Assembly: GCA_964527545.1 (NCBI GenBank)
Contig: CAZGQF010000001.1
Span: 148,019-212,018 of the forward strand
Length of the DNA stretch: 64,000 nucleotides
Direction: 5' to 3'
DNA from: Candidatus Undinarchaeota archaeon
GTDB lineage: Archaea; SpSt-1190; DYHY01; CAZGQF01
Position numbers and translations under genes: made by a program. The notes beneath the pieces are model-generated. The model searched no databases and was not told the origin of the DNA. It saw only the letters and a program-made list of their open reading frames with translations. Of the stretch, positions 12,140-57,389 are shown in pieces (position 1 is the first letter of the stretch; each line of letters opens with the position of its first letter).

Positions 12140-12174
12140 ATCAGTTTCACCTATCCACTGCCGAAAAACAGCGG

Positions 12175-12183
12175 TTTAAATAA
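12175..12183 (-). promoter_or_regulatory. TATA-like box (ttatttaaa on minus) about 40 nt upstream of the EF-1alpha ATG, with GGTGAAAC Shine-Dalgarno
   Basis: Only AT-rich element in the 60-nt EF-2/EF-1alpha spacer. Confidence 0.3.
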
Positions 12184-12199
12184 GTTTTCAACTCCGCGC

Positions 12200-33981: not shown

Positions 33982-34290
33982 ATGGCACTCGCCACAGGGA
34001 AAAGAATGTGGGTTTTTGCACTTGAGAGATTTGCCCATCCTCGGCTTCTTCGCTGTCATTTTTCTGGAAGGGAAGAAAAGATATATCAGGGCCGAAGTCG
34101 TGTCACTTCCATGGACGGGAGGAAGGCTGTGGAGTCAACCTTCAAAGCGCTCTTCGCTCTGACAGAGATCAGGTTCGTATTGCGCGGGTTGAGGCCGGGG
34201 TTCGAGCCGGGCAATGGGGAGAAAAAGAGGCTGAAGAAGCTGATTGCGAAGGCGAGAGAGGAGATCGACAAGCTGGAGGGGTCGATATGA
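33982..34290 (+). CDS. small hypothetical protein upstream of SepCysS
   Basis: ORF overlapping the SepCysS start by 4 nt. Basic coiled-coil-like C-terminus (KKRLKKLIAKAREEIDKLEG). Start uncertain; an alternative ATG at 34109 has a nearby TATA. Confidence 0.3.
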   Translation: MALATGKRMWVFALERFAHPRLLRCHFSGREEKIYQGRSRVTSMDGRKAVESTFKALFALTEIRFVLRGLRPGFEPGNGEKKRLKKLIAKAREEIDKLEGSI

Positions 34291-36975: not shown

Positions 36976-37026
36976 CGCCGTGGGGGGCGGGAGGCCACTA
37001 AAAGGTTTGCGCAGGGGGAGGCTTAT

Positions 37027-39922: not shown

Positions 39923-40819
39923 ATGAAGTTACAAAACTTCGTGGCAATCTTGTTCATCTTCTCGTCCGTCTTCGCGCAGGGCGGGGAGAGGGCCTCAATC
40001 AGGGAAGGCGAGAGCGAGGAGGTGATGGGGTTCAACGTCACCGTTGATGCCGTAATACAGCCGCTCAACGAGGTCTGGTTCATAGTGGGGGACGACAGCT
40101 TCGGCCTGGAGAACGGCGAGGAGAGGTGCCTCGAAAACTACAGGTTCTCACTGCTTGGCATCTCCGGGAACGGCGCTCCCTCTGAGGCGCTGGTCGGGAT
40201 CTCGGAAGGCTGCGACATCGACTGGTGCGGGGACGGCGATTGCGATGAAGATGAAGACTGCGGGAGCTGCGAGGAGGACTGCGGCTGTGGGGAGGAGGAG
40301 AGCTGCGTCGAGGGGCTCTGCGAAGAGGTGGAAGAGGAAGTCGAGGAGGTCAATGAAACGCTTGAACCTTGCGAGGCCCCTGAAAAAAGGTGCGGGGACG
40401 GCAGGTGCGGCAAGCAAGAGACTTGGCTCGACTGCTGCTACGACTGCAGGTGCCCGGACGGAATGAGGTGCTGGAGAGGGGAGTGCATTGAGACGGACGG
40501 CTGCGAAAGCGAGAGCGACTGCGGCGACGGCGACCCCTGCACAAGAGACCTCTGCAGGTCTGGAGAGTGCAAAAACGTCGCTTTCGAGGGCTGCGCTCTC
40601 GGCCAAGACTGCCTGTCCGAAGGCGCGGAGAGGGGCGGGGAGTTCTGCGACGGGAAGGGTTGGAGAGAGAAGGGTGAGGGGAAGGCAACATGTTCACACG
40701 ATTACGAGTGCGAGAGCGGCTCCTGCCTGGCAGGCCTCTGCTACGCTCCTCCAAAGGAGAGAGGCCTCTTCTCGCAGGCTGCAGGATGGCTCAGAGGCGT
40801 TCTGAGGCTCTTCCTCTGA
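39923..40819 (+). CDS. secreted cysteine-rich repeat protein
   Basis: Sec signal peptide (MKLQNFVAILFIFSSVFAQG). Multiple Cys-rich modules: CGDGDCDEDEDC, CGDGRCG..CCYDCRCPDGMRC, CGDGDPC..C. Acidic. Confidence 0.45.
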   Translation: MKLQNFVAILFIFSSVFAQGGERASIREGESEEVMGFNVTVDAVIQPLNEVWFIVGDDSFGLENGEERCLENYRFSLLGISGNGAPSEALVGISEGCDIDWCGDGDCDEDEDCGSCEEDCGCGEEESCVEGLCEEVEEEVEEVNETLEPCEAPEKRCGDGRCGKQETWLDCCYDCRCPDGMRCWRGECIETDGCESESDCGDGDPCTRDLCRSGECKNVAFEGCALGQDCLSEGAERGGEFCDGKGWREKGEGKATCSHDYECESGSCLAGLCYAPPKERGLFSQAAGWLRGVLRLFL

Positions 40820-41504: not shown

Positions 41505-42482
41505 ATGACGGAGCTGGTTGAGACAGGGATCCCCGGCCTCGACTCCCTGTTGAGGGGCGGCCTCCCTGAGGGGAGCTGTCTCCTCCTCATTGCGCCGCCA
41601 AAGGCCGAGACCCACCTGTTCTGCCTGGAGTTCCTCTACAGGGGGACGGAAATGGGCGAGCCAGCCCTGATGGTCACCATGGACAGCTCCCCTGAGATGC
41701 TGAAGAAGAAGGGGGGGAGCTACAGCTTCGACCTGGAGGCGAAAGAGGGGGAGGGCCTCTTCAAGTGGGTCGACGGCTACTCCATCCACTCCAACAAGGA
41801 CGTGGAGAGCACGGAGAACGTGGAGAGGGTAGGCGGGCCTATGGCGCTCACCGACACTTCGATAGCGCTCTCCAGGCTCCAGGCGCGGCTGCACGGGGAG
41901 CATGGCTACTACAGGTTCATCTTCGACTCAATCTCCACCCTCCTCATCTACAACTCGCCGGAGACTGTCTACAGGTTCCTTGAGGTCATAGTGGCAAAGA
42001 CGAGGTCGTCGGGCGGCGTCGGCTTCTTCGTCCTCGGCGAGGGGATGCACGACAAGAAGGTGGAGATGGTGATAAGGCACATGATGGACGGCACTGTCCA
42101 CATCAAGGACAACCTCGAGATAGAGGCGCTCAGCCTCCCGACTCCGGGCGAGCTGAAGAAAGGCGAGCTGAAGCTCTCAGAGGACGGCTTCAGCGTGGAG
42201 ATGGAAGAAGAGGAGGTGGAGAAGAGAAGCTGGAAAGAGGAGGTGGAGAAGATGGCGATGGCGAAGAAGGAAAAAACCGCGGAGGTGGGCGTCTGGGAGG
42301 ACTCCAAGAGGGGCGGCGTCGAGGATGTCCTAGAGAAGAACGCGGCGCCGGCCATCGAAGCGATAGGGGAGAAAAAGTTCACGGAAGAGGAGCTGGAGAG
42401 AATGCTGAAAAAGGAGAAGAAGGGAAAGGGGAGGAAGACTGTGGTCTCTGCCATTGAATCCAGGCTGGAGGAAGGAAAATGA
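41505..42482 (+). CDS. KaiC/RecA-like domain protein with degenerate Walker A and K/E-rich C-terminal tail
   Basis: N-terminus GIPGLDSLLRGGLPEGSCLLLIAPPKAETHLF has KaiC-like architecture, but the GxxxxGK[ST] is replaced by APPKAE. The tail ends ...EEELERMLKKEKKGKGRKTVVSAIESRLEEGK. Confidence 0.6.
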   Translation: MTELVETGIPGLDSLLRGGLPEGSCLLLIAPPKAETHLFCLEFLYRGTEMGEPALMVTMDSSPEMLKKKGGSYSFDLEAKEGEGLFKWVDGYSIHSNKDVESTENVERVGGPMALTDTSIALSRLQARLHGEHGYYRFIFDSISTLLIYNSPETVYRFLEVIVAKTRSSGGVGFFVLGEGMHDKKVEMVIRHMMDGTVHIKDNLEIEALSLPTPGELKKGELKLSEDGFSVEMEEEEVEKRSWKEEVEKMAMAKKEKTAEVGVWEDSKRGGVEDVLEKNAAPAIEAIGEKKFTEEELERMLKKEKKGKGRKTVVSAIESRLEEGK

Positions 42483-43651
42483 TAGCTCCAACAGGGATAG
42501 CGAAGCTGGACGAGCTCCTTGGGGGAGGGCTCTCCGCAGGTGAGCTGATGCTCTTCTGGAGCGGGCCGGGGATCGACTCGTCGCCCTTCCTCTACACCAT
42601 CATAAATGCCGCACTGGAGAGAAAGGAGAAAGTCGTCTACTTCACGCAGAACAAGGGCGAGGCTGCTGTCAGGAGGGAGATAGAGAGGTACGGCTTCTCG
42701 ACGGAAAACCTCCTCTTCATCGACGGCTACTCCGGACTCATCAACCAGCCCTCCAGCGCCAGGTACGTCGTGAAGAGGGCGAAGGACCCGAAAGACATCA
42801 CCAAGACTCTTGAGAGGGCGATGGAGGCAGGCCCTTCGCTCGTCGCCTTCGACTCCCTCTCCAGCCTCGTCGACGTCTGCGGCGAGAAAGCTCTGGAAGA
42901 GGTTGAAAAGTGGAAGAGGCTGCTCGAGGAGAAGGGGGCGGCTGCAGTCTTCCTCTTCACGGAGTGGCCCTACAATGAAAAGCTGCTCGAGATGGTAGGA
43001 GAGACTGCAGACACGATAGTCAGACTCGGTGCAGTCGAGAAGGAGGTCATCCACCAGAGGTTCTTCACGGTTGTCAAGAGGGACGGCAGCTGGGTCGACA
43101 GGGCAGGCGTCCCCTTTGAGATAGCCTCGCCGGGCGGCCTCCGCATAAGATTGCCCAAGATAGTGGTGACAGGGCCGGAGGGGAGCGGCAAGAGCACTTT
43201 CATACGCTCCGCCAGCAACTACTTTGTCGGAGCTGAAAGGGCGGGGACGACAGTGGGGATAGACTACGGAAAGGTCGACTACCACGGTTTCCGCGTCTCC
43301 CTCTTCGGGACGCCCAGCCACAAAAGGTTCGACGCCATACTGCCAGTGGTGGGGGCGGGCGCCATGGGAGCGATAGTCCTTGTCGACGCCACCCGGCCCG
43401 AGACATTACCCCACGCCGACATCTTCATCGAGAAGGCGGGACTGGAGGCGGTTCCCAGGATAGTGGTCTCCAACCACACAGGCCTCCCCGGCGCGCTCAA
43501 GCCTGAAAAGATAAGAAAGAAGATGGGGTTGAAAGGGGACACCCCTCTCATCGCGCTCACTGAAAGAGAGAAGAAGGGCGGCGAGCCGGCAGCCATGGAG
43601 ACCAAGGAGATCCACAAGGTGCTGGACGCCCTCTTCGAACAGGTGGTCTGA
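42479..43651 (+). CDS. fusion protein: KaiC-like domain (degenerate P-loop) plus C-terminal P-loop GTPase-like domain
   Basis: N-terminal GIAKLDELLGGGLSAGELMLFWSGPGIDSSPF has no Lys in the P-loop. C-terminal VVTGPEGSGKSTFI (G1), TTVGIDYG (switch I Thr), LFGTPS (G3-like), then a 116-aa tail. Start overlaps the upstream stop (ATGA). Confidence 0.55.
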   Translation: MIAPTGIAKLDELLGGGLSAGELMLFWSGPGIDSSPFLYTIINAALERKEKVVYFTQNKGEAAVRREIERYGFSTENLLFIDGYSGLINQPSSARYVVKRAKDPKDITKTLERAMEAGPSLVAFDSLSSLVDVCGEKALEEVEKWKRLLEEKGAAAVFLFTEWPYNEKLLEMVGETADTIVRLGAVEKEVIHQRFFTVVKRDGSWVDRAGVPFEIASPGGLRIRLPKIVVTGPEGSGKSTFIRSASNYFVGAERAGTTVGIDYGKVDYHGFRVSLFGTPSHKRFDAILPVVGAGAMGAIVLVDATRPETLPHADIFIEKAGLEAVPRIVVSNHTGLPGALKPEKIRKKMGLKGDTPLIALTEREKKGGEPAAMETKEIHKVLDALFEQVV

Positions 43652-44002
43652 ATGGAAAGGAAAAAGGACAGGATAAAAGGGATGCTCTCCAAGCTTGTCA
43701 GGGAGGAGGGTCTGGACGGGGCAGTGCTAATCTCGCGCGACGGGCTGGTGATAGTGACGGAAGGGAAGGAACTGGACGCCGTCGCCGCCATGACAGCAGT
43801 CGGCGTCGCCTCCCTCGAGACTGCGGCAAGCGAATGGAAGCTCGGACCTGTAGAGAAGGTGGAAGTGGAGACGCCTCAGCACATGATGGTGGTGGCCGAT
43901 GCCGGGCCAGAGGCGGTATTGGCTGTCGCAGTGAAGAAGGGGAGAGACGTCTCTGAGAAACTGAAAGGGGCAGGCAAGGAGATAGAGAAGGTGCTGGGCT
44001 GA
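43652..44002 (+). CDS. Roadblock/LC7 (MglB-like) domain protein
   Basis: 116 aa. GAVLISRDGLVIV...MTAVGVASLE...MVVADAGPEAVLAVAV follows the alpha-beta-alpha Roadblock pattern. Starts 1 nt after the GTPase-fusion stop. Confidence 0.7.
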   Translation: MERKKDRIKGMLSKLVREEGLDGAVLISRDGLVIVTEGKELDAVAAMTAVGVASLETAASEWKLGPVEKVEVETPQHMMVVADAGPEAVLAVAVKKGRDVSEKLKGAGKEIEKVLG

Positions 44003-44467
44003 ATGGCCATCAAGATCGACGTCGAGAAATACTCGCCAATCGCCAAGTTCCTCGGCCTCTCCGCCCTCGTCCTCGTTTTCCTCGCCTTCTTCAAGAGCCC
44101 GCCTCCGCCTGAAGAGTACGACGAAAGGTGCTTCTACGACCACTGCGTCGAGAGGTGCGGGGAGATGGAGTACCGCTTCGGCCGGTTCGACTACGGGGAG
44201 AGGGTGAGGTGCTTCTGCAAGACCAACATAACTGAGATCTCCGTCCAGCTCTACAGCCTGGACGGAAGCGAGTGCCCTCCAGTGACGAGGGACAGGAGGT
44301 GCGACGAGAGCTTCTGCGAAGAGACCTGCATGAAAGACGAGGGCTTCCTTCCCAACCACTCCTCCCTCGTCCTGGAGGACGGCTGGTACGTCTGCATCTG
44401 CCGCGACATGGATGTTGGCTGGTACGAGGAGGCCTACCACGTGGAGGCCTTTAAGTGCTCTTCCTGA
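44003..44467 (+). CDS. membrane-anchored Cys-rich extracytoplasmic protein
   Basis: N-terminal TM (FLGLSALVLVFLAFF), then 14 Cys in 120 aa (CFYDHCVERCGEMEY...CFCK...CDESFCEETC...). Start overlaps the Roadblock stop. Confidence 0.4.
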   Translation: MAIKIDVEKYSPIAKFLGLSALVLVFLAFFKSPPPPEEYDERCFYDHCVERCGEMEYRFGRFDYGERVRCFCKTNITEISVQLYSLDGSECPPVTRDRRCDESFCEETCMKDEGFLPNHSSLVLEDGWYVCICRDMDVGWYEEAYHVEAFKCSS

Positions 44468-44494: not shown

Positions 44495-47400
44495 TTGAAG
44501 GTCATGCGGGCCCAGGCAGCTCTGGAGTACCTCGTGATAGTTGGCATGATGCTCGCAATCCTCATCCCCGCCTTCTGGTACTCGCTCCGCACCTCGCAGC
44601 AGACTCTCGACCTGCGCCAGACAAAAGACGCAGCCCAGAAGGTGGCGAGGACGGCGGACACTGTCTACGCCCTCGGGCCGGGCTCGAGGATGTATGCCCG
44701 GATACGCCTCCCAGCCACTGTTGAGGACGAGCAGGTCGGAAACAACACCGTCCTCTTCCGCGTCGACGTCGGCCAGGGGCCGCAGGACATCTTCGAGCTG
44801 ACCAAGGGGGACGTGATAGGCGTGCTGCCTGAAGAGCGGGGAGAACACCGCGTACTTGTGAAGATGCTTGAGAGCGGCATCGTCCAGATAGGGGAGGCGA
44901 TCTCCTTGTCGCCCGACCCTTTCGAGGCGACCATAGCTCCCGGCGCTTGGAACGACTCCCTCTTCAACCTCTCCTCCAACGTCGACTACACAGTCTTCTC
45001 ACTCTCGCCCTCAATCTCGGGCGAGATAGAGAGCTGGGGGGTGATTGGGGCGGCGGACGCCCTGGTCTCATCGCTTTCCCCATACGGCTGGGACCTCTTC
45101 GACCTCAACATCTCCGTCCCGCCTTCACAGGCGGCCGGCACCTACGACGGCACGCTTCTCGTTTCCTCCAACCAGAGCGAGGCGACCTCCGCGATACAGA
45201 TCACAGTGCCTTCCGTGCTCAACTACCTCTTCATCGACATCTACGGCTATGAGATGGTGGGCGACATCGGCTTCGTGGTCTCCGGCGACCATCTCTCGCA
45301 GGACGAGAGGGAGGTTCTTGACTGGCTTGAGAGCGAGGAGAGCGGCGAAGGCTACCTCTGGGACTACGACATCATCTCAGACTCGCCCCCCTCCTCTCTC
45401 CGCAACCACTCCGCAGTCCCCCAGAGCTGGGAGGCGACCAGCGGCGGGAGCGGCTACTCCGAAGTCGTCTCGAGCGATGACATCTACGCGACCGCCACTG
45501 TCGCCCAGTACGCTACGGAGAACTTGACAGTCCACTTCCCTCCGCTCGGTCTCGAGAAAGACCCTGACAGCGTCAACTTCACGGCTGAGTACAGGATGAG
45601 CGCCACTGCAGGCTCCCCCTCCCAGGGCGAGTCCCAAGTCGACTCAATGGACGACGTATCGGACTGGAGCGAGGAGTACGGCGCGACCAACGGCGACTTC
45701 ACCACCGACTCGGGCACAAAGCAGGAGGGGACTGCCTCCATGGAGATAAGCTATGACTTCCCGGCGCCCGGCCCGTCCTCGAGCGAGGAGCTGACAGACG
45801 GCGGCTCGATCTCAGGGCCCTCCTCCGGCAGGATAACGGGCGGCGACCACACAGACACCCACTCCACGACAGACGGCGACTACTACTACCTCGGCTACGA
45901 GGTCAACGGCAACTGGAGGAGGAGGAACGGCTGGATGGAGCTGGAGTACGACATCTCTAGCCTGGGCATCGACCCGTCAGACCTGACAGACATCACTCTC
46001 GACGCCGACTTCTGCCACTCTGGGGACGAGACGTCGCCGGCCTGCGGACAGGGCGACGCGATGGAGGGCTTCCTCTGGGGCAGCCAGCTTGTCCAGGTCT
46101 ACGACCACGCCAACTCTGAATGGGACTCGCTCGGCTCCCTCTCCGTCAACACTGGAAGCGACGCGGAGCAGAGCGGGAGCTGGTCGGCATCATCGCCGCT
46201 CTCCAACTATGTCAGCGGCAGCGACACCGTCGACGTCAGGTTCGAGGTCGACTTCTACCTCGCCTGGACCTACGACGCCGTGCTCCTCTTGGACTACGTC
46301 CCCCTCTCACTCACATGGTCTGGCGGTTCGGAGACGCTCGACGAGTACGTCATCAAGAAGAGCTTCTCCCAGGAGGACTGGACAGGCTCCCAGAACCTCT
46401 CTGTCTGGGTCTACGGCGACGCCAACGGCGAGGACATCACGCTCAACATCACCGACTCCGGCGGGGGGAGCTATGAGTGGACGCCGCTCGACGTGAACTG
46501 GAGCGGCTGGCAGTGGAAAAAGTTCGACCTTTCCGGGACGAGCGGCGTCGACCTGTCGTCTGTCAACGGCGTCAAAATCAAGCTGGAAGAGACGGCGGCA
46601 GGCGACAACCCGTCCGGCACTCTCTACCTCGACGACCTCCGCAGGTTCTACACCGCGGGGGGCGGAAACTTCTTTTGCGACCTTCTCTGCCATGACGGCT
46701 CCTCCTGGACCGAGGTGGCGCCAGGGCTGGCCCAGACGTCAGACACCACCCAGCTCTGGGACGTGACCGCCTGCCTCTCGACAAAGGAGGAGGCAAACGA
46801 CGCAGACCTCAAGTTCTCCTGCTACAACGAGATCTCTTCCGGCCAGACGTTCTACCTCGACTACTCCCGGCTCGACGCCTCCTATCTCGGCCTGGCGTCA
46901 GGCGACGCTGAGAGCTGGAACACGTCGACCGGCGACTCAGGCTCGTCTGAAATCCAGTCAAGCAACGACGTCTACGCAGATGAGGAGATAACGCCGGAAG
47001 GGACGGAGAAGCTCGAAATCGACTTCCCAGACCTCGGCGTGACTGGCGCTCCCTTCTCTGTCAACACCACAGTGGAATACAGGTACAGCGACGTAGCCGA
47101 GGGAGGGAGGGAAGGCGGAAGCGACGTGGTCGACTATCTCAACCTCTTCCCCTCAGACAACCCAGTCAACGTCCAGCTCAACCAGCCCTTCAACCTGACA
47201 GTCACCCTCTGGGACCAGCAGGGCGATCCCGTGAGCGGGAAGGAGAGCTACTTCTCGGTCAACAGCATCAAGGACGACAACGGGGCCGCTGCCGCCTTCT
47301 CGACACAGCCCGCTCTCGAGTCGGAGCCAGGGAAGTACGCCATCGAGATAACTATGACCTCCGGGAACGACGGAGCGACCTACTACGTCAACGGCGAGTA

Positions 47401-48838
47401 CCTGGAGGGGAGCGTGCCCGACAGGTACCAGATGTGGTGGCACGGGACAGTCAACCTCAACGAGAGCGCCAAGACGGGCGTGGCCTGGGTCTTCCTGCCG
47501 GAGACTGACTTCGTGACGCTTCCCTCGACCGGCGGGACCATCAACCTCAAGCTCTACTGCATCGACCAGACAAGCTCCCCGCTCAACTCCCTCTCGACCA
47601 CAGACTTCAAGATCTCCAATGTCAAGAGCGAGACGGGGAGCGCAGTGGGCGGCTGGAGCCAGGGGACTGTCACTTTCGAAGGCGACGGCATCTACAAAAT
47701 ACCTATCACGTTCTCCTCCCTCCCTGAGGGCGAAAACCTCTTCCTAAGGGGGAACTGGAAAGAGCTGAACAAGGAGATCGACTTCGGCGCCTCTTTCTTC
47801 GTCAACTCGTCAGATCCATACGCCCCCGCGCCAGACAACCCCTACGTGCCAGGCTCTCCGGCGGCCGGCCTTGAGTGTGAGCTGGAGTGCAGGGGAGAGG
47901 GCGGCTGGTCTTCACTCGGCCCCCTCCCCCAGAACGACAGCGACACTCTCGCGACCTTCTCACTCGACTCCTGCGTCTCCACACAGGCCATCGCCAACGA
48001 CATCCACACCCGCTTCAACTGCACCAACCACTTCTCCGACAACGCAACGCTCTACGTCGACTACGCCAACGTCAGCGTCGGCTATGTCGGCGAGGAGAGC
48101 TGGAATGAACTGAACGAGACAGACCTCTGCGGCTACGGGGCGATAATGGTGGGAGAGCACGAGAGCTCGCTCGACGCGGCGCTCCTCGACTTCCTCGACG
48201 ACTGCGGCTGCGTGATGCTTGTGGGAGAGGCGGCCGCCTCCGCCCCTGTCTCTCTCGGATACGCCAACTCGAGCTTCTCAGGGCTCAACTCCACGCTCTA
48301 CGTGGTCGACGACTCAAACTACGTGACGGCCAACTACTCCAACTCCTCGCTCGTCTCCGTCTACTCGCAAAGCGACATGATGTGGGGGTCGGACGCAGAC
48401 GGCGTTCTCGCCACCGCCGAGGGCAACACTCTCGGCGAGGACGGCAGATTGATGTACTACGGCGTCAGGACGCAGCACCTCTCTTCAGACGGAAACAACA
48501 CTCTGACCCGCTTCGTGGACAGGTGCCTCTCCAAGTCGGTTACGCCAGGCACTCTCGAAGAGAAGAGCGATTTCAGGAAAAACGAGGTCATCGTCTACCG
48601 CATCTCCCTCAGAGACCAGGGCCTCTCTCCCGCAGACTCAAGCGACGTCGACTCGTGGGTCTGGATGGCGAACGGGACGCTGGCCTACCAGAGACTCGAT
48701 GCCTCGACGTCCGGGGGCGCCCTCCAGGAGAGCTACACCATTCCCTCCAGCGGGCCGTCCGGGACGTGGACAGTCAACGCGACCGCCGCAGGGCCGTACT
48801 CCTCTGTCCAGAACTCCACGACATTCGAGGTCGCATAG
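44495..48838 (+). CDS. giant (1447 aa) pilin-headed surface protein / putative adhesin, N-glycosylation sequon-rich
   Basis: N-terminus MKVMRA/QAALEYLVIVGMMLAILIPAF is a class III signal peptide. The rest is low in charged and high in S/T/N/D/G residues, with dozens of N-x-S/T sequons. No TM elsewhere. Confidence 0.6.
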   Translation: MKVMRAQAALEYLVIVGMMLAILIPAFWYSLRTSQQTLDLRQTKDAAQKVARTADTVYALGPGSRMYARIRLPATVEDEQVGNNTVLFRVDVGQGPQDIFELTKGDVIGVLPEERGEHRVLVKMLESGIVQIGEAISLSPDPFEATIAPGAWNDSLFNLSSNVDYTVFSLSPSISGEIESWGVIGAADALVSSLSPYGWDLFDLNISVPPSQAAGTYDGTLLVSSNQSEATSAIQITVPSVLNYLFIDIYGYEMVGDIGFVVSGDHLSQDEREVLDWLESEESGEGYLWDYDIISDSPPSSLRNHSAVPQSWEATSGGSGYSEVVSSDDIYATATVAQYATENLTVHFPPLGLEKDPDSVNFTAEYRMSATAGSPSQGESQVDSMDDVSDWSEEYGATNGDFTTDSGTKQEGTASMEISYDFPAPGPSSSEELTDGGSISGPSSGRITGGDHTDTHSTTDGDYYYLGYEVNGNWRRRNGWMELEYDISSLGIDPSDLTDITLDADFCHSGDETSPACGQGDAMEGFLWGSQLVQVYDHANSEWDSLGSLSVNTGSDAEQSGSWSASSPLSNYVSGSDTVDVRFEVDFYLAWTYDAVLLLDYVPLSLTWSGGSETLDEYVIKKSFSQEDWTGSQNLSVWVYGDANGEDITLNITDSGGGSYEWTPLDVNWSGWQWKKFDLSGTSGVDLSSVNGVKIKLEETAAGDNPSGTLYLDDLRRFYTAGGGNFFCDLLCHDGSSWTEVAPGLAQTSDTTQLWDVTACLSTKEEANDADLKFSCYNEISSGQTFYLDYSRLDASYLGLASGDAESWNTSTGDSGSSEIQSSNDVYADEEITPEGTEKLEIDFPDLGVTGAPFSVNTTVEYRYSDVAEGGREGGSDVVDYLNLFPSDNPVNVQLNQPFNLTVTLWDQQGDPVSGKESYFSVNSIKDDNGAAAAFSTQPALESEPGKYAIEITMTSGNDGATYYVNGEYLEGSVPDRYQMWWHGTVNLNESAKTGVAWVFLPETDFVTLPSTGGTINLKLYCIDQTSSPLNSLSTTDFKISNVKSETGSAVGGWSQGTVTFEGDGIYKIPITFSSLPEGENLFLRGNWKELNKEIDFGASFFVNSSDPYAPAPDNPYVPGSPAAGLECELECRGEGGWSSLGPLPQNDSDTLATFSLDSCVSTQAIANDIHTRFNCTNHFSDNATLYVDYANVSVGYVGEESWNELNETDLCGYGAIMVGEHESSLDAALLDFLDDCGCVMLVGEAAASAPVSLGYANSSFSGLNSTLYVVDDSNYVTANYSNSSLVSVYSQSDMMWGSDADGVLATAEGNTLGEDGRLMYYGVRTQHLSSDGNNTLTRFVDRCLSKSVTPGTLEEKSDFRKNEVIVYRISLRDQGLSPADSSDVDSWVWMANGTLAYQRLDASTSGGALQESYTIPSSGPSGTWTVNATAAGPYSSVQNSTTFEVA

Positions 48839-48874: not shown

Positions 48875-49252
48875 ATGGCAGGACAGAGCTCTCTTGAAAG
48901 CTTGGTCAGCATAGGGTTCATGCTCTTCCTCTTCACCTCCACCCTTGCAGTCGCCTACCAGAAGGAAAGGGAGACATCGCGAGTTGGGGAGTTCCTGGCC
49001 AACCGGACCGACTGCGACGCAATCGCCCTTGAGGTGGCCGCGGTCTTCACGAGCGGGGAAGGAACGAGGACCGTCAGGAAGATCGGCAGGAGAGCGGAGG
49101 TCTACGGCGATGCAGGCCAGATAGTGGTGGGCGACGTCTTCTGCCTGACCATTGCCAACGTCACCAACGGCACCCACAGCAGCTTCACGCTGGAGGAGGG
49201 CGAAGTGGAGATCCTCTCCCTTGGCAGGGAGGTGAGAGTAAGGAATGTCTAG
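48875..49252 (+). CDS. minor pilin-like protein (class III signal peptide MAG/QSSLESLVSIGFMLFLF)
   Basis: 125 aa. Prepilin-like N-terminus with Q+1 and E+5. Confidence 0.5.
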   Translation: MAGQSSLESLVSIGFMLFLFTSTLAVAYQKERETSRVGEFLANRTDCDAIALEVAAVFTSGEGTRTVRKIGRRAEVYGDAGQIVVGDVFCLTIANVTNGTHSSFTLEEGEVEILSLGREVRVRNV

Positions 49253-49718
49253 GGGACAGTCCGTGATGCTCGACTTCCTGCTGGCCGCCTTCGTCTTCAG
49301 CGTCGTCTTCTCAGCAGTGATGCTCTCCCTCCGCAACGTCCAGGAGACCTTCGACGCGGAAGAGAGGAGGTGGAGGATACAGAGGGGTGCCATACAGGCG
49401 GCCGACGTCCTTGTGAAGAGCAGGGGTGTGCCCTTCAACTGGAATGAAAGAGAGACAAGGCTTCCCGGCCTCAAGTCGATGGGGCGTTCCCTGGAGAGCG
49501 GCAAGCTCTCCGCCTTCGAAGGCCTCGACTATGAGGAGACGAAGGAGATGCTCGGGCTGGAAGGCCTGGAGTACAGAGTAGAAGTGAAGGGCAACGAGAC
49601 CTCCATGAGCATGGGAAGGCCGGAGAGCGGCGACCTGCGCGTCGCATCGACAAGGGTAGCCCTCCATAACGGCGAGCCCGTCTTCCTCAAAGTCACAGTC
49701 TGGGAGGGTAAAGGATGA
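49245..49718 (+). CDS. minor pilin-like protein (MSRG/QSVMLDFLLAAFVFSVVF)
   Basis: 157 aa. Overlaps the upstream gene by 8 nt. Prepilin-like N-terminus. Confidence 0.5.
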   Translation: MSRGQSVMLDFLLAAFVFSVVFSAVMLSLRNVQETFDAEERRWRIQRGAIQAADVLVKSRGVPFNWNERETRLPGLKSMGRSLESGKLSAFEGLDYEETKEMLGLEGLEYRVEVKGNETSMSMGRPESGDLRVASTRVALHNGEPVFLKVTVWEGKG

Positions 49719-50158
49719 GCAGGGGCTATGTCTTCAGCTACGACGCGGCGCTGGGGACGCTCCTCGCCATAATCATACTCTGGGCGGTCCTCTGGGAGCT
49801 CCGACTGCCCGGCGTCCTCTCGGAGGTCCAGGTCGTGCGGAGGGCCAACGACGCCCTCGAGGTCCTCATAGAGGGTGGGACCATGGAAAGCATGGAAGAA
49901 GGGACGATTGAGGAGGGGATGGAAAAGCTCCTCCCCCGGAACTACCGCTTTCGCCTCCTCGTCTCTTCCCACTCCCACTCTGGCAGCGGCTTCGAAGTTG
50001 AAGAGAGCGTGAGCGTGGGAGATAATCTGCCGCTGGAGAGGCTCGACCCAGAGACCGCGACGCCGCTCCCCTTCAGAACGGAGAGGACTTTCGTGACCCT
50101 CTCCGGCAACGAAATAGAGTCCTACCACCGGGCGACGATGTGGGTGTGGCTGGAATGA
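49715..50158 (+). CDS. minor pilin-like protein (MSRG/YVFSYDAALGTLLAIIIL)
   Basis: 147 aa. ATGA overlap with the upstream gene. Prepilin-like N-terminus. Confidence 0.45.
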   Translation: MSRGYVFSYDAALGTLLAIIILWAVLWELRLPGVLSEVQVVRRANDALEVLIEGGTMESMEEGTIEEGMEKLLPRNYRFRLLVSSHSHSGSGFEVEESVSVGDNLPLERLDPETATPLPFRTERTFVTLSGNEIESYHRATMWVWLE

Positions 50159-50952
50159 GCAGGGGTATACTCTTCACAGTCAGCCTTACTCTCATCTCGC
50201 TGGTCGTCTTCTCCTTCGCCTCCACGATAATGGGCGGCTACGAAGAGAAGCGGGGAGAGGAGGCCCAGCTTTTGGTCGTGGAGAGGGTGGGCAGGACTTA
50301 CGACAACCTCGAATGGAACGTGAGGGAGATCTTCTCCACCAGCGGTGTGGAGACCGCCTTCTACGGAGACGTGGTCTCTTTCACTGAAGAGCTCCCCAAC
50401 GAAGAGTCCGTTGACTTCGTCCAGAACGTCGAGCGCTACGCGGAGTTTGCGGAGAAAAAGGGCGTCGATCTGGAGACGGACGAGATGACGGAGTATCTCA
50501 CCCTCAGGGTGGAGCCATACGGAGGCCTCTACTCGCACGAAGACTATGGCGGCAATGATCTCTTCTTCAGCTCCCCCCAGACTCCAGAGCTCTACCGATT
50601 CCACATCACCCTCTCAGACGGCGGCCTCCAGCGGATAGACTGGGATCCGTACGAGTCGGGAAGCCTCCCCGTCAACATCTATGTCCAGGGACAGCAGTCC
50701 GGAAACGAAACAAGGCTTATTAACCCCTCTGGGCTCACTGTGGCAAACGTAACGCTTAACGGCAACAGGGGGGTCATAAGCATCCGTTTTGAGGGCGGGA
50801 ACATGACAGCGACCAGCTACGTCAGCAGCACTGTGGAGATTCAGACCAACGTTACAGTGGATGAAGTCTCCAAAATCGTCCTCCCTGGAGCGCTGAAAGT
50901 GTGGGTGCCCGGGACGGGGGCCAGCAGGAACAGCACTGCGAGGGTGGTGTGA
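50140..50952 (+). CDS. minor pilin-like protein (MSRG/ILFTVSLTLISLVVFSF), sequon-rich
   Basis: 270 aa. Overlaps the upstream gene by 19 nt. Prepilin-like N-terminus. Confidence 0.45.
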   Translation: MGVAGMSRGILFTVSLTLISLVVFSFASTIMGGYEEKRGEEAQLLVVERVGRTYDNLEWNVREIFSTSGVETAFYGDVVSFTEELPNEESVDFVQNVERYAEFAEKKGVDLETDEMTEYLTLRVEPYGGLYSHEDYGGNDLFFSSPQTPELYRFHITLSDGGLQRIDWDPYESGSLPVNIYVQGQQSGNETRLINPSGLTVANVTLNGNRGVISIRFEGGNMTATSYVSSTVEIQTNVTVDEVSKIVLPGALKVWVPGTGASRNSTARVV

Positions 50953-52544
50953 TGGCCAACTCCAAGAAGAGGGAGAACCTGGAGAAGCTGAAGGAGGGGA
51001 TCAAGGATGAGCCCTCCGGTAAAAGCGGATTCAGGCTCGAGAAGCTCTTCGACATAGGGACCTATGCAAGCCTCGTGGAGAGGTTCACCTCACACGAGGA
51101 GCCGGACCCGAAACCCAGGAAGCTGAAGCTGAAAGAGACGGTAGAGAACTTCTTCGACAAGAACGCAAAACCCACCATAGAGGCGGTCGAGTCAGGGAGG
51201 TTCGACAAGGAGGAGCTTGAGGAGCTTCTAGATCACGAGAGAGAAAACAAAGAAAGGAAGACCGTTTTGGGGGTGATAGAGTCGAAGCTGGGGGAGATGG
51301 AGACCGTCGAGGACTTCTTCGACAAGAACGCTAAGCCCACCATAGAGGCGGTCGAGTCAGGGAGGTTCGACAAGGAGGAGCTAGAAGAGCTTCTAGAGCA
51401 CGAAAAAGAAGAGAAAGAGAGAAAGACAGTCGTCTCGGCGATAGAGTCGAAGCTGGAGGAGATGGAGACCGTCGAGGACTTCTTCGACAAGAATGCGGAG
51501 CCCACCATAGAGGCGGTCGAGTCAGGGAGGTTCGACAGAAAAGAGCTGAAAGAGCTGCTTGAACACGAGAGGGAGGGGAAGGAGAGAAAGACAGTCGTCT
51601 CGGCGATAGAGTCGAAGCTGGGGGAGATGGAGACCGTCGAGGACTTCTTCGACAAGAACGCTAAGCAGATCATAGAGGCCGTGGAGGGGGGCAGGTTCAG
51701 CGACGAGGAGCTCGAAGAATTGCTGAGGCACGAGAGAGAGGGGAAGGAGAGAAAGACCGTTTTGGGGGTGATAGAGGCGGTCATCGGCGAGCTGCCCCCT
51801 GAAGCTGAAGAGAGAATTGGCAGGATACGCTACCAGGTCGAAGTGGAGAGGGGGAGGAGAGAAGGCAAGACGGAAGTCGAAGTCGTTGACATCGAGGAGA
51901 GAGAAGAGTGGCGCGGGGGCATAGGCGGCCACAAGGCAGAGGTCGCAGAGGAAGGGAAAGAGAACTTCGTCGCGCGGATCTTCGAGGAAAGAAAAGAGAG
52001 AAAGGAAGGTCTCCTCTCCAAGCTGGTCAGAAAGGTGAAGAGTCTCTTCGGCCTCCCCAAGGAAGAAAAGGAAGAGCTCGAGGAGGTGGAAGGGGGGATC
52101 ATCAGGCCGGGCGCGGAGGTGGTGGTCAAGCTCGAGGAGGTTGAGGGCTGGGAGGAGAGCGGCAGGAAGAGTGAAGGCGTGGAGGAGCAAGGAGAGAGGG
52201 CTGAGGTAGGAGAGTCGTCAAAACAGGAGGCAGAATGTGCTGATGAACAGGCGAACAGGAGAAAGGTGGAGGAGTGGGACGTCAGCGACATCTCCCTCTC
52301 TGAAGCGAGCGAGAAGCTGGTCACTGGGATCGACAAGCTTTTCTTCATAGTCAAGAAAAAGGAAGGGGTGGGGCTCGAGGCGGCGGCCGGAATGCTGGGC
52401 GTTACGCGCGGCAAAGTAGACGAATGGGCAAAGATACTGGAAGACGAGGGGCTCATCACAATTCACTATCCGGCGGTGGGCGAGCCCAAGCTGGTCCCAA
52501 AGAACGAGACAAGGGGTGGGAGCCACGAAATCGAAGGAGATTGA
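50952..52544 (+). CDS. cytoplasmic repeat protein (4.x copies of a 55-aa K/E-rich repeat) with C-terminal winged-helix-like domain
   Basis: ATG at 50952 overlaps the upstream TGA. Repeats ETVEDFFDKNAKPTIEAVESGRFDKEELEELLEHEREGKERKTVVSAIESKLGEM. C-terminus VTGIDKLFFIVKKKEGVGLEAAAGMLGVTRGKVDEWAKILEDEGLITIHYP. No TM. Confidence 0.5.
   Translation: MANSKKRENLEKLKEGIKDEPSGKSGFRLEKLFDIGTYASLVERFTSHEEPDPKPRKLKLKETVENFFDKNAKPTIEAVESGRFDKEELEELLDHERENKERKTVLGVIESKLGEMETVEDFFDKNAKPTIEAVESGRFDKEELEELLEHEKEEKERKTVVSAIESKLEEMETVEDFFDKNAEPTIEAVESGRFDRKELKELLEHEREGKERKTVVSAIESKLGEMETVEDFFDKNAKQIIEAVEGGRFSDEELEELLRHEREGKERKTVLGVIEAVIGELPPEAEERIGRIRYQVEVERGRREGKTEVEVVDIEEREEWRGGIGGHKAEVAEEGKENFVARIFEERKERKEGLLSKLVRKVKSLFGLPKEEKEELEEVEGGIIRPGAEVVVKLEEVEGWEESGRKSEGVEEQGERAEVGESSKQEAECADEQANRRKVEEWDVSDISLSEASEKLVTGIDKLFFIVKKKEGVGLEAAAGMLGVTRGKVDEWAKILEDEGLITIHYPAVGEPKLVPKNETRGGSHEIEGD
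51136..51795. repeat. 165-bp tandem direct repeat, 4 full copies plus a partial (51136, 51301, 51466, 51631)
   Basis: agaccgtcgaggacttcttcgacaagaa recurs exactly every 165 bp. Copies are about 85-95% identical, in-frame and coding. Confidence 0.85.
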
Positions 52545-54051
52545 CCGCTACGAGCTCGAGGTCGACAACGTCAAGGCAGAGATAAGAATCGTGGCCGGGG
52601 AAGACCTCGTCACACTCTACAAAGTGACAGTCAAGAAGCCGGACGTTGCCACGCGCGCGCTGCTCAACGAAGTCCGCTCCGAGCTGGTCTCTGAGGTGAG
52701 CTTCGGGGGGAGGGAGATACTCAACCCGGAGGCGATAGAGGAGCTCAAGAAGAAGTTCAAGCAGAAGGCTGAGGAGCTGCTTTCAGAGCACCTTCCCGAC
52801 ATAAAGGAGATCGACAGGGACTTCCTGATAGGCCACCTCCTCCATGAGATGCTCGGGCTCGGGAAGCTGGAGATCATACTGTCCGACCCCGAGCTTGAGG
52901 ACCTCGGCGTCAACTGTGCGGAGGAGCCCATCTGGCTCTACCACAAGAAGTACGGATGGCTGAAGACTGATGTCTACTTGGAGAGCGAGGACGAGATAGA
53001 GAATTTGATGAACATAATCGCCCGCAGGGTGGGGAGGTCGATAACCATCCGGGACCCCCTCCTGGATGCCCACCTCCTGAAAGGCGACCGTGTAAACGCA
53101 ACCCTCTACCCCATCTCCACCAAGGGGAACACCATAACCATCAGGAAGTTCTCGGAGAGGCCCTGGACCATCACAGACTTCCTCCAGAACGGCACGACCA
53201 GCAAGGAGGCCGCGGCCCTCGTCTGGCTGGCCATGCAGTACGAGCTGAACATCCTCATCTCCGGCGGCACCGCCTCCGGCAAGACCAGTTTCCTCAACGT
53301 CTGCATGCCCTTCATACAGCCCAACCACCGCATCGTCTCCATAGAGGACACCCGCGAAATCAAGCTCCCTGATTTCCTCTACTGGACCCCTTTTACCGTG
53401 CGCGAGCCAAACCCTGAGGGAAAGGGCGGAGTAACCATGCTCGAACTCATGGTCAACGCGCTCCGCACCAGGCCGGACAGGATAGTGGTGGGAGAGATAA
53501 GGCGCTCCAGGCAGGCAGAGGTCCTCTTCGAGGCGATGCACACAGGCCACAGCGTCTACTCCACGCTGCACGCCGACACCGCCGCCCAGACGGTGCGCCG
53601 CCTCATAAACCCGCCCATCGAGATACCTGAGACGATGCTGGACTCCGTCCACCTAAACGTGGTCATGTTCAGGGACAGGAGGAGGGGCATCCGCAGGACG
53701 CTGGAGGTTGCCGAGCTGGTCCCCACCGGCGAGATGGGGACGGGCTTCAAGATTAACGACATCTTCAAGTGGAAGCCGCGCGGAGACCGCATAGTCTCCC
53801 ACTCAGACAGCATCAGACTGCTGGAGGAGATAAATCTCCACACCGCAATGACGGAGAAGGAGATAGAAGAGGACATCGAGGAGAAGGAGAGGATTCTCTC
53901 CTGGCTCTCCAGGAACAACATAAAAAACGTCAACGCGGTGGGCAGGACGGTGGCCGAGTACTACAAGGACCACGACATGACAGTCGCCCAGATAGAGAGG
54001 AACGTCTCGCCCGAGAAGCTGCTTGGGGATGAGGTAGAGCTCCATGCCTGA
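52516..54051 (+). CDS. type IV pilus/archaellum assembly ATPase (FlaI/TadA/GspE family)
   Basis: GTG start. Walker A GGTASGKTS, Walker B DRIVVGEIR, His-box TLHAD. N-terminal domain of about 200 aa. Overlaps the downstream membrane gene by 8 nt. Confidence 0.85.
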   Translation: MGATKSKEIDRYELEVDNVKAEIRIVAGEDLVTLYKVTVKKPDVATRALLNEVRSELVSEVSFGGREILNPEAIEELKKKFKQKAEELLSEHLPDIKEIDRDFLIGHLLHEMLGLGKLEIILSDPELEDLGVNCAEEPIWLYHKKYGWLKTDVYLESEDEIENLMNIIARRVGRSITIRDPLLDAHLLKGDRVNATLYPISTKGNTITIRKFSERPWTITDFLQNGTTSKEAAALVWLAMQYELNILISGGTASGKTSFLNVCMPFIQPNHRIVSIEDTREIKLPDFLYWTPFTVREPNPEGKGGVTMLELMVNALRTRPDRIVVGEIRRSRQAEVLFEAMHTGHSVYSTLHADTAAQTVRRLINPPIEIPETMLDSVHLNVVMFRDRRRGIRRTLEVAELVPTGEMGTGFKINDIFKWKPRGDRIVSHSDSIRLLEEINLHTAMTEKEIEEDIEEKERILSWLSRNNIKNVNAVGRTVAEYYKDHDMTVAQIERNVSPEKLLGDEVELHA

Positions 54052-55911: not shown

Positions 55912-56355
55912 CTACTCGACTTCGCCCGTGCATTCGCCTATCTCTTCGTGGTCGACGATGCCATCGATTGTGCTGAACTGGAACTTCACTGTCGCTATGT
56001 ACCTCTCGCCTTCGTCAAATCCTGAGAACCCCGAGACGGTGATTATCTCAGACTTTCCGGCGTCGATGGCGTAGTCCGTTGAGTCAGTCTCCGTCTCGCC
56101 CTCTATCACCACCCGCGTCCTGTTGATGTTGACCTTGGCGCCCGCCCCGTTCGCTATCTTGATTATGAAGTCACCGTTGTCCATGAAGGCGTGCTCCCTG
56201 TACTCAAGCTGGTCGAGGCCCACGCACGACTTCTGTGTGTAGGTAGAGGGGTTGAGAATGCCCATTGCGTAGAGTGCGCCGCCAGCTATGAGGATGATTA
56301 TGATGACCCACCCGTAGGTCATCAGGTACTCGAGGGCGCTCTGGCCGCGTCTCAC
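55912..56355 (-). CDS. major pilin-like protein, paralog 1 (MRRG/QSALEYLMTYGWVIIIIL)
   Basis: 147 aa. Class III signal peptide. Tail-to-tail with the TadC-like gene. Confidence 0.7.
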   Translation of the reverse strand: MRRGQSALEYLMTYGWVIIIILIAGGALYAMGILNPSTYTQKSCVGLDQLEYREHAFMDNGDFIIKIANGAGAKVNINRTRVVIEGETETDSTDYAIDAGKSEIITVSGFSGFDEGERYIATVKFQFSTIDGIVDHEEIGECTGEVE

Positions 56356-56401
56356 GGGAGGAATAGCCCCCAGACAGTATTAATGCTTTCCAATGGGGCG
56401 C

Positions 56402-56860
56402 CTACTCGACCTTGCCGGTGCAGCTGCCCCTGTCCACGTGGCCGCTGATACCCCTTCTCACGTCGTAGACGAAGACCACGTCGACTTCGTAGTCGTCGCC
56501 CTCGTTCCATCCCTCGCCGGAGTAGCCGGTTATGGTGAACGTGGCAGACTTGCCTGCGTTTACGTTGGTCGGCGTGGTGTACTCGTGCCAGCAGCAGGTG
56601 CTGTTGGAGTTGGAGAACATGGAGGCGTTTGTCACCTGTATCTTGGCTCCCGCCTCATTTGCAACTCGGATCTTGAAGTCCGAGCCGTCGAAGTAGTGGT
56701 CCTCGTAGCCGAGTGATGTCAAGCCCGTGCAGGTCTTCTGCTGGTACGTGGAGGGGCTGAGCAACCCCATCGCGTAGAGCGAGGAGGCAGCTATCAAAAT
56801 GATTAGCAGGGCCCATCCGTATGTCAGCAGATACTCGAGGGCGCTTTGGCCTTTCCCCAT
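56402..56860 (-). CDS. major pilin-like protein, paralog 2 (MGKG/QSALEYLLTYGWALLIIL)
   Basis: 152 aa. N-terminal 45 aa nearly identical to paralog 3. Sequons NASMFSNSNST. Confidence 0.7.
   Translation of the reverse strand: MGKGQSALEYLLTYGWALLIILIAASSLYAMGLLSPSTYQQKTCTGLTSLGYEDHYFDGSDFKIRVANEAGAKIQVTNASMFSNSNSTCCWHEYTTPTNVNAGKSATFTITGYSGEGWNEGDDYEVDVVFVYDVRRGISGHVDRGSCTGKVE
56641..56779. repeat. segments of paralog 2 with 49-nt and 59-nt blocks identical to paralog 3 (57170-57218, 57250-57308)
   Basis: tcttggctcccgcctcatttgcaactcggatcttgaagtccgagccgtc and aagcccgtgcaggtcttctgctggtacgtggaggggctgagcaaccccatcgcgtagag occur in both genes. Confidence 0.7.
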
Positions 56861-56948
56861 GGAAAAAGACTGCTGTATCGACTATTAATGTTTTGGCAGA
56901 AAAAAGGAAGAGAAGGGAGGCCGGGGCCTCCCGTTCACAGCGTCAGGG

Positions 56949-57389
56949 CTACTCTATCTTGCCCGTGCAGCTGCCCCTCTCCACGTGGTCCTGGATGCCT
57001 CCTGGAATGTCGTAGGTGAACTCCAGGTCGGCGATGTAGTCGTCGCCCTCAGCAAAGCCGGAGAAGCCGGTCACAGTCAGTGTCGCCTGCTTGCCCGCGT
57101 TGATGTTGGTGGGCGTCGAGTAGTTGTACTCCTGCCCTTCAACGGTCACGTTGAACTCGTCCACCTTTATCTTGGCTCCCGCCTCATTTGCAACTCGGAT
57201 CTTGAAGTCCGAGCCGTCAAAGAAGTGGTCTTGGTATCCCAGCGTGACCAAGCCCGTGCAGGTCTTCTGCTGGTACGTGGAGGGGCTGAGCAACCCCATC
57301 GCGTAGAGGGCGGCGGCGGCGACAAGTATAATCACCAGGGCCCATCCGTATGTCATAAGGTACTCTAAAGCGCTCTGGCCTCTTTTCAT
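56949..57389 (-). CDS. major pilin-like protein, paralog 3 (MKRG/QSALEYLMTYGWALVIIL)
   Basis: 146 aa from ATG 57389 (or MPM start at 57395). The long ORF extension to 57590 is a GC artefact. Confidence 0.7.
   Translation of the reverse strand: MKRGQSALEYLMTYGWALVIILVAAAALYAMGLLSPSTYQQKTCTGLVTLGYQDHFFDGSDFKIRVANEAGAKIKVDEFNVTVEGQEYNYSTPTNINAGKQATLTVTGFSGFAEGDDYIADLEFTYDIPGGIQDHVERGSCTGKIE

Follow-up and report, generated by a model that had tools for sequence, protein, structure and literature searches.

A ten-fold enlarged modular minor pilin as the probable pilus adhesin of a DPANN archaeon

Introduction

The question raised by a 64,000-nucleotide stretch of DNA from a Candidatus Undinarchaeota archaeon (assembly GCA_964527545.1, contig CAZGQF010000001.1, positions 148,019 to 212,018; hereafter the window) is what a protein of 1444 residues does as the first of five minor pilin-like proteins encoded in a type IV pilus locus. 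Most DPANN archaea are ultra-small, host-dependent organisms that have not been cultured, and how they recognize and attach to their hosts is largely unexplained. Pili have been seen at the contact sites of DPANN cells (as cited in PMC9938205).

An initial annotation of the window, made from the letters alone, had described the giant protein as a pilin-headed adhesin. Our computational analysis indicates that it is the first minor pilin of its operon, grown ten-fold by gaining sugar-binding-like and immunoglobulin (Ig)-like domains. We consider it likely that this modular minor type IV pilin is displayed near the pilus tip as an adhesin. The earlier interpretation was thus largely right in kind and is partly supported overall. 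Homology to a pilin family and the surrounding pilus locus bear out a minor pilin, much increased in size, from a type IV pilus operon, and the extension of binding-type β-sandwich modules is borne out by the fold matches of one domain (D1) and by homologues of another (D2), which overlap matches to a carbohydrate-binding module (CBM) family, CBM11. Family membership, synteny, the predicted folds, a split domain and the enrichment of glycosylation sequons are what the analysis shows.

Results

The N-terminus belongs to a family of small pilins

The open reading frame (ORF) at 44495-48838 on the plus strand exists as annotated and runs without interruption. The TTG at 44495 is a mechanical ORF start. 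The ATG at 44504 is the likelier start codon because public gene calls give 1444 aa with the N-terminus MRAQAALEYL and because the small homologues P0052 and P0054 begin with MRAQAA(L/M)EYM. The modular minor pilin gene therefore occupies 44504..48838 (plus strand, stop codon included), and the leader is MRA, not MKVMRA. The protein has a mass of about 156 kDa and a pI of 4.05. S, T, N, D and G account for 42% of its residues, the dominance noted before. Its single hydrophobic segment is N-terminal (Kyte-Doolittle, 19-residue window): values above 1.4 occur only in windows starting at residues 3-15 (TTG numbering). The scan of the whole protein gave no second transmembrane segment, in agreement with the initial annotation.

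Residues 1-133 (44504..44902, plus strand) constitute the pilin moiety, in which the leader MRA is followed by QAALEYLVIVGMMLAILIPAF, with a predicted helix at residues 2-57 and then a β head. These residues are homologous to proteins of 134-183 aa encoded at the same first operon position in ATPase-related DPANN loci (E 1e-8 to 1e-15), and for residues 1-247 the homology extends to orthologues with 473-951 aa (E 1e-19 to 1e-49). Searching with the family profile brought in 15 more proteins with lengths of 126-144 aa, of which one bears the source label 'UPF0333 family'. Members share the motif [KR][GA] followed by Q..(L/M)E(Y/Q)L, and Q+1 and E+5, both present in the giant protein, are invariant in the 20-sequence family alignment. 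As in class III signals, the N-terminus consists of a short basic leader ending in G/A, a polar +1 residue, about 20 hydrophobic residues and an acid near +5. The AlphaFold2 (AF2) model contains a helix at residues 2-57 and then seven β strands between residues 62 and 131, with a predicted local distance difference test score (pLDDT) of 89-97 per ten-residue block over residues 1-130; the modelled topology is the pilin 'lollipop' of a long helix and a β head. NCBIfam held no model for the giant protein, the small pilins or P0052, and neither phmmer with the whole protein nor the pilin-family profile found anything significant among PDB sequences. Family homology, Q+1/E+5 and the predicted helix support a class III (prepilin-type) signal and anchor, from which the leader would be cleaved; of the earlier claim, only the longer leader had to be given up.

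The size, acidity, β-rich modules and sequons of the giant protein recall archaeal surface-layer glycoproteins, and its match to the Pfam class III model lies below threshold. It could then be an ordinary Sec-exported S-layer-like glycoprotein, N-terminally anchored or cleaved, in a pilus neighbourhood by coincidence. We regard this as very improbable. Residues 1-133 have their homologues in a family of dedicated small pilins in which Q+1 and E+5 are invariant, and the synteny is kept across phyla-level DPANN lineages. The hydrophobic stretch, as read from the sequence, spans about 22 residues with a Glu near its start and is followed by no site of the A-x-A type.

The appendage is a mosaic of β-sandwich modules around a split domain

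The giant protein and its family had to be analysed by exhaustive HMMER and profile searches because the word-index search is insensitive here: with the whole giant protein it returned the self-match alone, and with residues 1-250 nothing, not even the giant protein. The HMMER search with residues 250-1444 found 40 proteins at E ≤ 0.001, the query included, and the matches fall on four regions, namely D1, D2, D3 and the last 92 residues.

D1 (residues 425-614; 45776..46345, plus strand) is a CBM/galactose-binding-like jelly roll, as judged from its homologues, AF2 and Foldseek. It has 27 homologous stretches in 26 proteins and a conserved Cys pair (CHSG...C). D1 was the domain modelled with depth because MAFFT, in a joint alignment of D1 and D2, put D2 fragments on D1. 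With 16 homologous stretches as the alignment, AF2 produced a β jelly roll at pLDDT 91 and a predicted template modelling score (pTM) of 0.87, and the segment-wise structure prediction proposed by the initial annotation gave confident models of both the pilin head and D1. Foldseek returned 18 PDB matches at E<=1e-3 (best E 1.3e-6), including the CBMs of 1wky, 1gu3, 1pmj and 7vbo, MAM, Eph ligand-binding and Fbs1 domains, and the phi812 baseplate protein. Nine of 17 D1 relatives weakly match PF14741 GH114_assoc (best E 1.4e-6). The model thus places D1, as a predicted fold, in the galactose-binding-like class of recognition domains. Kelch matches to the D1 profile were discarded as spurious, being a short repeated 'vEvYn..t..W' motif summed over blades.

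D2 (residues 615-722; 46346..46669, plus strand) is a β-sandwich annotated through its neighbours only: its homologous stretches overlap CBM_11 matches in P0036 and P0038, that of P0026 lies inside a weak, below-cutoff SGBP_B_XBD match, and P0019 also carries D2. The C-terminal domain (residues 1353-1444; 48560..48835, plus strand) is an MG2-like Ig-fold domain. Its Pfam MG2 match (E 5.9e-6) reaches 27 bits, below the cutoff of 32.8, and the stretches of P0025, P0002 and P0003 homologous to it coincide with their clear MG2 matches. The second domain (residues 134-243; 44903..45232, plus strand), common to the 473-951-aa orthologues, is probably an Ig-like β-sandwich. The similarity is weak, and the AF2 model has low confidence because the alignment lacks depth there. 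Two weakly similar Ig-like repeats lie within residues 881-1121 (47144..47866, plus strand), at about 896-955 and 1013-1072 (pairwise E 0.002). This region has a weak YtkA-like Pfam match and no database homologues in the exhaustive HMMER search. We rejected an assignment of residues 881-1121 as MG2 repeats, which the MG2 profile does not support and for which there was the weak mutual similarity alone. Of the domain types that the initial annotation suggested looking for, Ig-like and lectin/CBM-like ones are present, whereas no cadherin or PKD domain was found in the giant protein; Pfam gave no vWA or propeller match in it either.

D3 is an uncharacterised, α/β-looking domain that has no Pfam match and whose profile found no significant match among PDB sequences. 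It occurs in two parts, residues 244-300 (45233..45403, plus strand) and residues 1203-1352 (48110..48559, plus strand). When residues 241-300 were joined to 1201-1355, they aligned in a single high-scoring segment pair with the one-piece domains of P0027 (E 8e-19), P0029 (E 6e-19) and P0031 (E 2e-15). D3 is therefore split by an insertion of about 900 residues (residues 301-1200; 45404..48103, plus strand). GC content and GC content at third codon positions (GC3) are uniform along the giant gene, including across the insertion junctions, and a recent foreign origin of the insertion was rejected because its GC3 is that of the rest of the gene. As the colinear alignment shows, the giant protein is derived from a shorter form consisting of pilin, Ig-like domain, α/β domain and MG2, by insertion of about 900 residues into a loop of the α/β domain.

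The repeated segments reported earlier are real. A masked fragment search found them, as self-BLAST of the intact protein hides them. Repeats A1 (residues ~296-385; 45404..45658, plus strand) and A2 (residues ~795-880; 46922..47143, plus strand) share 41% identity between residues 296-385 and 795-880, and B1 (residues 722-806; 46670..46921, plus strand) and B2 (residues 1122-1202; 47867..48109, plus strand) share 35%. For B, the similarity is to the C-terminal half of D1 (hmmsearch conditional E 6.9e-6 within the intact protein, 4e-8 for the isolated segment; hhalign E 9e-5), with B2 matching positions 111-179 of the D1 profile, and A is weakly like the N-terminal half of D1. The order A1-[D1-D2]-B1-A2-[Ig-Ig]-B2 suggests two further jelly rolls, and as a hypothesis we propose that the insertion contains two split jelly rolls with guest domains inside them.

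The ORF might also come from an assembly chimera or a fusion of neighbouring genes. Among 5.8 billion proteins the giant protein forms one sequence cluster only, and the identical protein is encoded on an NCBI contig (487,924 bp) and, for run SRR15425350, on a Logan contig; the two assemblies are no independent resequencing of it because the reads may be common to both. An artefact of this kind is nevertheless scarcely credible: the two parts of D3 stand on either side of the insertion in the correct order and reading frame, the gene is uniform in GC and GC3 throughout, and pilin-headed ORFs of 800-1728 aa occupy equivalent positions in related loci.

The giant protein contains 29 N-x-S/T sequons (x not P), against 13.0±3.2 expected from its composition (z=4.9), and none of 2000 shuffles reached 29. 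The density is 2.0 per 100 aa as opposed to 0.35 in the other ORFs of the window, a 5.8-fold difference. The protein had rightly been called sequon-dense, although there are two dozen and not 'dozens' of sequons. It is a candidate for N-glycosylation. The sequons cluster in the Ig-like domain, B2, D3 and MG2 parts. D1 of the giant protein has zero, and D1 homologues elsewhere are visibly rich in them.

The giant gene opens a minor-pilin set upstream of the pilus machinery

Four small minor pilin-like genes follow the giant gene on the plus strand. The second gene of the set (48875..49252) encodes 125 aa with the leader MAG followed by QSSLESL (Q+1/E+5). The third (49245..49718, 157 aa) has MSRG followed by QSVMLDF (D+6) and a weak DUF7287 match, and the fourth (49715..50158, 147 aa) has MSRG followed by YVFSYDA (D+6). 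The fifth (50155..50952), listed with 270 aa, has 265 aa from the likely ATG at 50155; its N-terminus, MSRG followed by ILFTVSL, is devoid of an acidic residue, and its product is therefore a candidate cap subunit. Beyond a gene for a repeat protein lie the type II/IV secretion-family assembly ATPase (52516..54051, plus strand; Pfam T2SSE, E 6.9e-37) and two T2SSF/TadC-like platform genes (54044-54934 and 54939-55910, plus strand; Pfam T2SSF, E 4e-19 and 3e-15). Three putative major pilins of 147, 152 and 146 aa ([KR]G followed by QSALEYL(M/L)TYGW) are encoded on the minus strand at 55912..57389, and another KaiC-like gene lies beyond them. With one secretion ATPase and a platform protein split into two genes, the locus is of the System 1 type.

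The repeat protein is encoded by an ORF of 547 aa just upstream of the ATPase gene (50901-52544, plus strand) with a tandem repeat at 51135-51757, whose unit of 165 nt (55 aa) occurs 3.8 times at 85% identity. The KaiC-like protein encoded at 41505-42482 has a similar motif (...KKFTEEELERMLKKEKKGKGRKTVVSAIESRLEE) at its end, and in several loci relatives of the 547-aa protein are encoded ahead of the ATPase.

A class III N-terminus and CBM-like modules would fit equally well a membrane-anchored surface receptor that never enters a long filament and serves at the cell surface to capture glycans or nutrients. Class III signals are found on Sulfolobales sugar-binding proteins, and the giant protein would then resemble those of the Sulfolobales bindosome or a pseudopilus subunit. 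The sequence by itself has no power to separate filament incorporation from simple anchoring. It is the genomic setting that makes a receptor unlikely: a minor-pilin set of five genes, in which the giant gene holds a conserved first place, lies directly upstream of the ATPase and platform genes, the major pilins are adjacent, and no ABC transporter genes lie beside the giant gene. Family members of 134 aa consist of the pilin domain alone, which is sensible only for filament subunits.

Related loci swap modules on the same pilin head

The locus was compared with 39 loci that contain close relatives of the window ATPase (45-58% identity), nearly all from DPANN metagenome-assembled genomes (MAGs) of Iainarchaeota/Diapherotrites, Micrarchaeota, Woesearchaeota and Nanoarchaeia. 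They have a common plan of five minor-pilin families, an optional repeat protein, the ATPase, two platform genes and major pilins nearby. The N-terminal signature is Q+1/E+5 in the family of the giant protein and in the 125-aa family, as in the major pilins, Q+1/D+6 in the 157-aa family and F+1/D+6 in the 147-aa family, and the 265-aa family lacks an acidic residue.

In many loci, the first operon gene encodes a bare pilin of 134-183 aa, and in others a protein of 473-478 or 803-951 aa. The orthologues of 473-478 aa carry MG2, which is found in loci L004 and L030, and Micrarchaeota orthologues end in a vWA domain (L016, L019, L022 and L026; E 1e-15 to 2e-19). Many sister loci have instead enlarged a different minor pilin ([KR]G followed by F..SLD), which reaches 900-1728 aa with ConA-like lectin, vWA and LVIVD β-propeller modules. 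A class-III-headed ORF of 400 aa or more is present in at least 20 of the 39 loci, and half or more of the loci sampled have one minor pilin expanded with modules of adhesion type.

The modules of the giant protein recur in other combinations. P0019 (1206 aa) consists of pilin, MG2 and D2, P0025 (720 aa) of pilin and two MG2 domains, P0031 (776 aa) of pilin and two D3 domains, and P0006 (564 aa) of a pilin-type N-terminus and D1; two of these four pilin-headed proteins come from Diapherotrites genomes. D1 is also present in P0004, together with multihaem cytochrome domains, and in P0005 and P0009, none of which has a pilin-type N-terminus, and MG2 and CBM11 are general families. The giant protein is thus a pilin fused to modules that exist without a pilin head, as expected of a modular pilin.

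Two features of the compared loci were noticed in passing. In L005 (4368-7223, minus strand; Iainarchaeum MAG RIFCSPLOWO2_01_FULL_58_19), the block of minor-pilin genes, one of which encodes a 951-aa member of the giant protein's family, is inverted relative to the ATPase, and the operon order is therefore not fixed. The ATPase ORF is 1007-1290 aa long, against the usual ~510, in L030 (9977-13093), L032 (9992-13081), L035 (9968-12991), L038 (9803-13675) and L039 (9986-13036). The best tblastn segment in these ORFs ends near query residue 279-308, and they possibly hold an insertion such as an intein.

Upstream genes and other features of the window

The giant gene is preceded, in order, by genes for a KaiC-like ATPase, a fusion of KaiC and a small GTPase, a Roadblock/LC7 protein and a Cys-rich membrane protein. 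The fusion and the Roadblock/LC7 protein together span 42479-44002 (plus strand): in the fusion (390 aa), a KaiC-like domain is joined to a Ras/Arf-like small GTPase domain (TIGR00231 small_GTP, E 2e-8, below cutoff), and Roadblock/LC7 (E 7e-12) comes directly after it. MglA and MglB steer the polarity of type IV pili in Myxococcus, and the pairing of KaiC-GTPase and Roadblock is reminiscent of them. The initial annotation had asked whether homologues also follow a Roadblock-GTPase module. This link did not hold: just one of the 39 related loci (L012) has the pair near its ATPase, with KaiC-GTPase (E 1e-97) and Roadblock at 11240-13016 on the minus strand, downstream of the ATPase and on the opposite strand.

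The Cys-rich, membrane-anchored protein of 154 aa directly upstream of the giant gene (44003-44467, plus strand) and a Cys-rich, secreted-looking protein of 298 aa with many CxxC-like spacings (39923-40819, plus strand), which lie on either side of the regulatory genes, gave no database matches, and a DsbA-like thioredoxin is encoded in the window at 28703-29377. Three more pilin-like N-termini, none with a Pfam match, occur outside the operon, at 62468-63355 (minus strand, 295 aa; MRGQSAMEYLMNYWW), 1670-3568 (plus strand, 632 aa; MRRGLIGLQTIILLL) and 655-1638 (plus strand, 327 aa, 5 sequons). The regions 34287-37050 and 31006-32427 encode SepRS (TIGR00470, 509 bits against a cutoff of 381) and SepCysS (TIGR02539, 443 bits against 365) side by side and a canonical CysRS (TIGR00435, 539 bits) 2 kb away. 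Both routes to Cys-tRNA are therefore found in a seemingly DPANN genome.

Discussion

The closest parallels to the giant protein are modular pilins of bacteria. In Streptococcus sanguinis, PilB combines a pilin with vWA, and PilC a pilin with Ig-like and ConA-like lectin domains (PMC8179133, PMC9934059). Both bind host proteins and glycans and have been modelled in a tip-located minor-pilin complex (PMC8179133, PMC9934059, PMC10191384). As in PilB and PilC, a class III signal and pilin moiety precede adhesive modules also found outside pilus biology, and the gene lies in a pilus locus among small minor pilins. The order of pilin, Ig-like and lectin-like domains is that of PilC, and orthologues in the family carry vWA as PilB does. 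The giant protein differs in being archaeal, without sequence homology to PilB and PilC, and three to four times larger. As modules it carries CBM/galactose-binding-like jelly rolls, an uncharacterised α/β domain and MG2, and its architecture is nested, with 900 residues inserted into one domain.

PilY1 consists of vWA and a propeller, and some sister-locus pilins likewise combine vWA with β-propeller (LVIVD) modules. The giant protein, in contrast, has a pilin head and neither vWA nor propeller, whereas PilY1 is not a pilin and lacks a class III N-terminus. What the giant protein does have in common with the PilY1/PilC tip adhesins of diderm type IVa pili is its very large size and a probable tie to a minor-pilin tip complex (PMC10191384). 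TcpB and CofB of type IVb pili are also minor pilins enlarged by extra β domains, which initiate assembly and are located at the tip, but these bacterial proteins have about 500 aa and a different domain make-up and act with a secreted effector (PMC5207764, PMC10191384).

The System 1/clade 1 archaeal pili of methanogens and DPANN archaea are recognized by their combination of one ATPase and two platform genes (bioRxiv 10.64898/2026.04.22.720090; PMC4858521). The Epd locus of Methanococcus maripaludis shares this layout and the several minor pilins, and occurrence in DPANN archaea and adhesin-like proteins are likewise common to System 1 (PMC4858521; bioRxiv 10.64898/2026.04.22.720090; PMC3875500). 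Unlike in M. maripaludis, no dedicated prepilin peptidase lies in the locus as covered by the window, and the size and nested architecture of the giant protein are not described there.

Several results weigh against our interpretation as a pilin with sugar-binding-like modules. PF04021 Class_IIIsignal, a model of just 27 positions, scored 13.2 bits against a gathering score of 23.7 (E 0.091). Foldseek with the N-terminal model, which included 117 low-confidence residues, found no solved pilin in the PDB (best E 0.019). Among the multi-transmembrane ORFs of the window there was no prepilin peptidase (no Peptidase_A24-like gene), the candidates having been rejected as bestrophin-like and M48 peptidase. 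The fold matches of D1 have modest TM-scores of 0.46-0.57, and the domain in the window has no Pfam match and falls in no curated CBM family. The nesting scores are also weak, since A aligned with the N-terminal half of D1 in register but at hhalign E 0.016 and a probability of 3%.

We nevertheless favour a modular minor pilin of an Iainarchaeota/Diapherotrites-like DPANN archaeon, and for its cleavage, assembly, position in the filament, glycosylation and ligand we infer the following sequence of events. A prepilin peptidase encoded elsewhere in the genome would remove the short MRA leader, and the hydrophobic N-terminal helix would anchor the protein in the membrane. The adjacent ATPase and the two platform proteins may then extract it and build the pilus with the four small downstream minor pilins, a step assumed because of the analogy to bacterial minor-pilin complexes. 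A location in the initiating complex at the pilus tip is most likely because an appendage of about 1300 residues cannot pack along the filament. Capping subunits are recognized by an N-terminus without an acidic residue (PMC10191384). The Q+1 and E+5 that the giant protein keeps, like major pilins, argue against its being the terminal cap itself; because Glu+5 is kept while the 265-aa family lacks an acidic residue, it probably sits sub-terminally, beneath the acid-less cap. There, the appendage would display several CBM/galactose-binding-like jelly rolls, as predicted from their fold, on Ig-like spacers, probably N-glycosylated, and would most likely bind to the surface of a host cell or substrate, with glycans or other structures there as candidate ligands.

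More tentatively, and with rather less confidence than we have in a tip adhesin, the five-gene minor-pilin set of DPANN archaea may serve as one plug-in socket for host-recognition modules, in which the giant protein, nested at three levels, would be the determinant of host specificity at the tip. In different lineages, different members of the set would have acquired vWA, ConA-like lectin, β-propeller or CBM-like arrays, and several lectin-like heads would branch from one pilin stalk. If this were true, these genes could reveal which partners uncultured DPANN episymbionts choose.

Bacteria already provide examples of the principle itself, and surveys of archaeal pilus loci have recorded adhesin-like class III proteins; what stands out here is the clearly split host domain together with the family-wide swapping of modules. 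The α/β domain, interrupted by a guest of 900 residues, clearly illustrates natural domain insertion and could mislead automated domain annotation. The giant protein extends to archaea a 'modular pilin' principle whose demonstration has so far come from a Gram-positive bacterium, and the same module types, vWA and lectin-like domains, appear to have been recruited independently in bacteria and archaea. By analogy, the giant protein is most likely an adhesin on the pilus of a tiny symbiotic archaeon, and the enlarged minor pilins, all annotated just as 'hypothetical', are concrete candidates for the attachment proteins of DPANN archaea.

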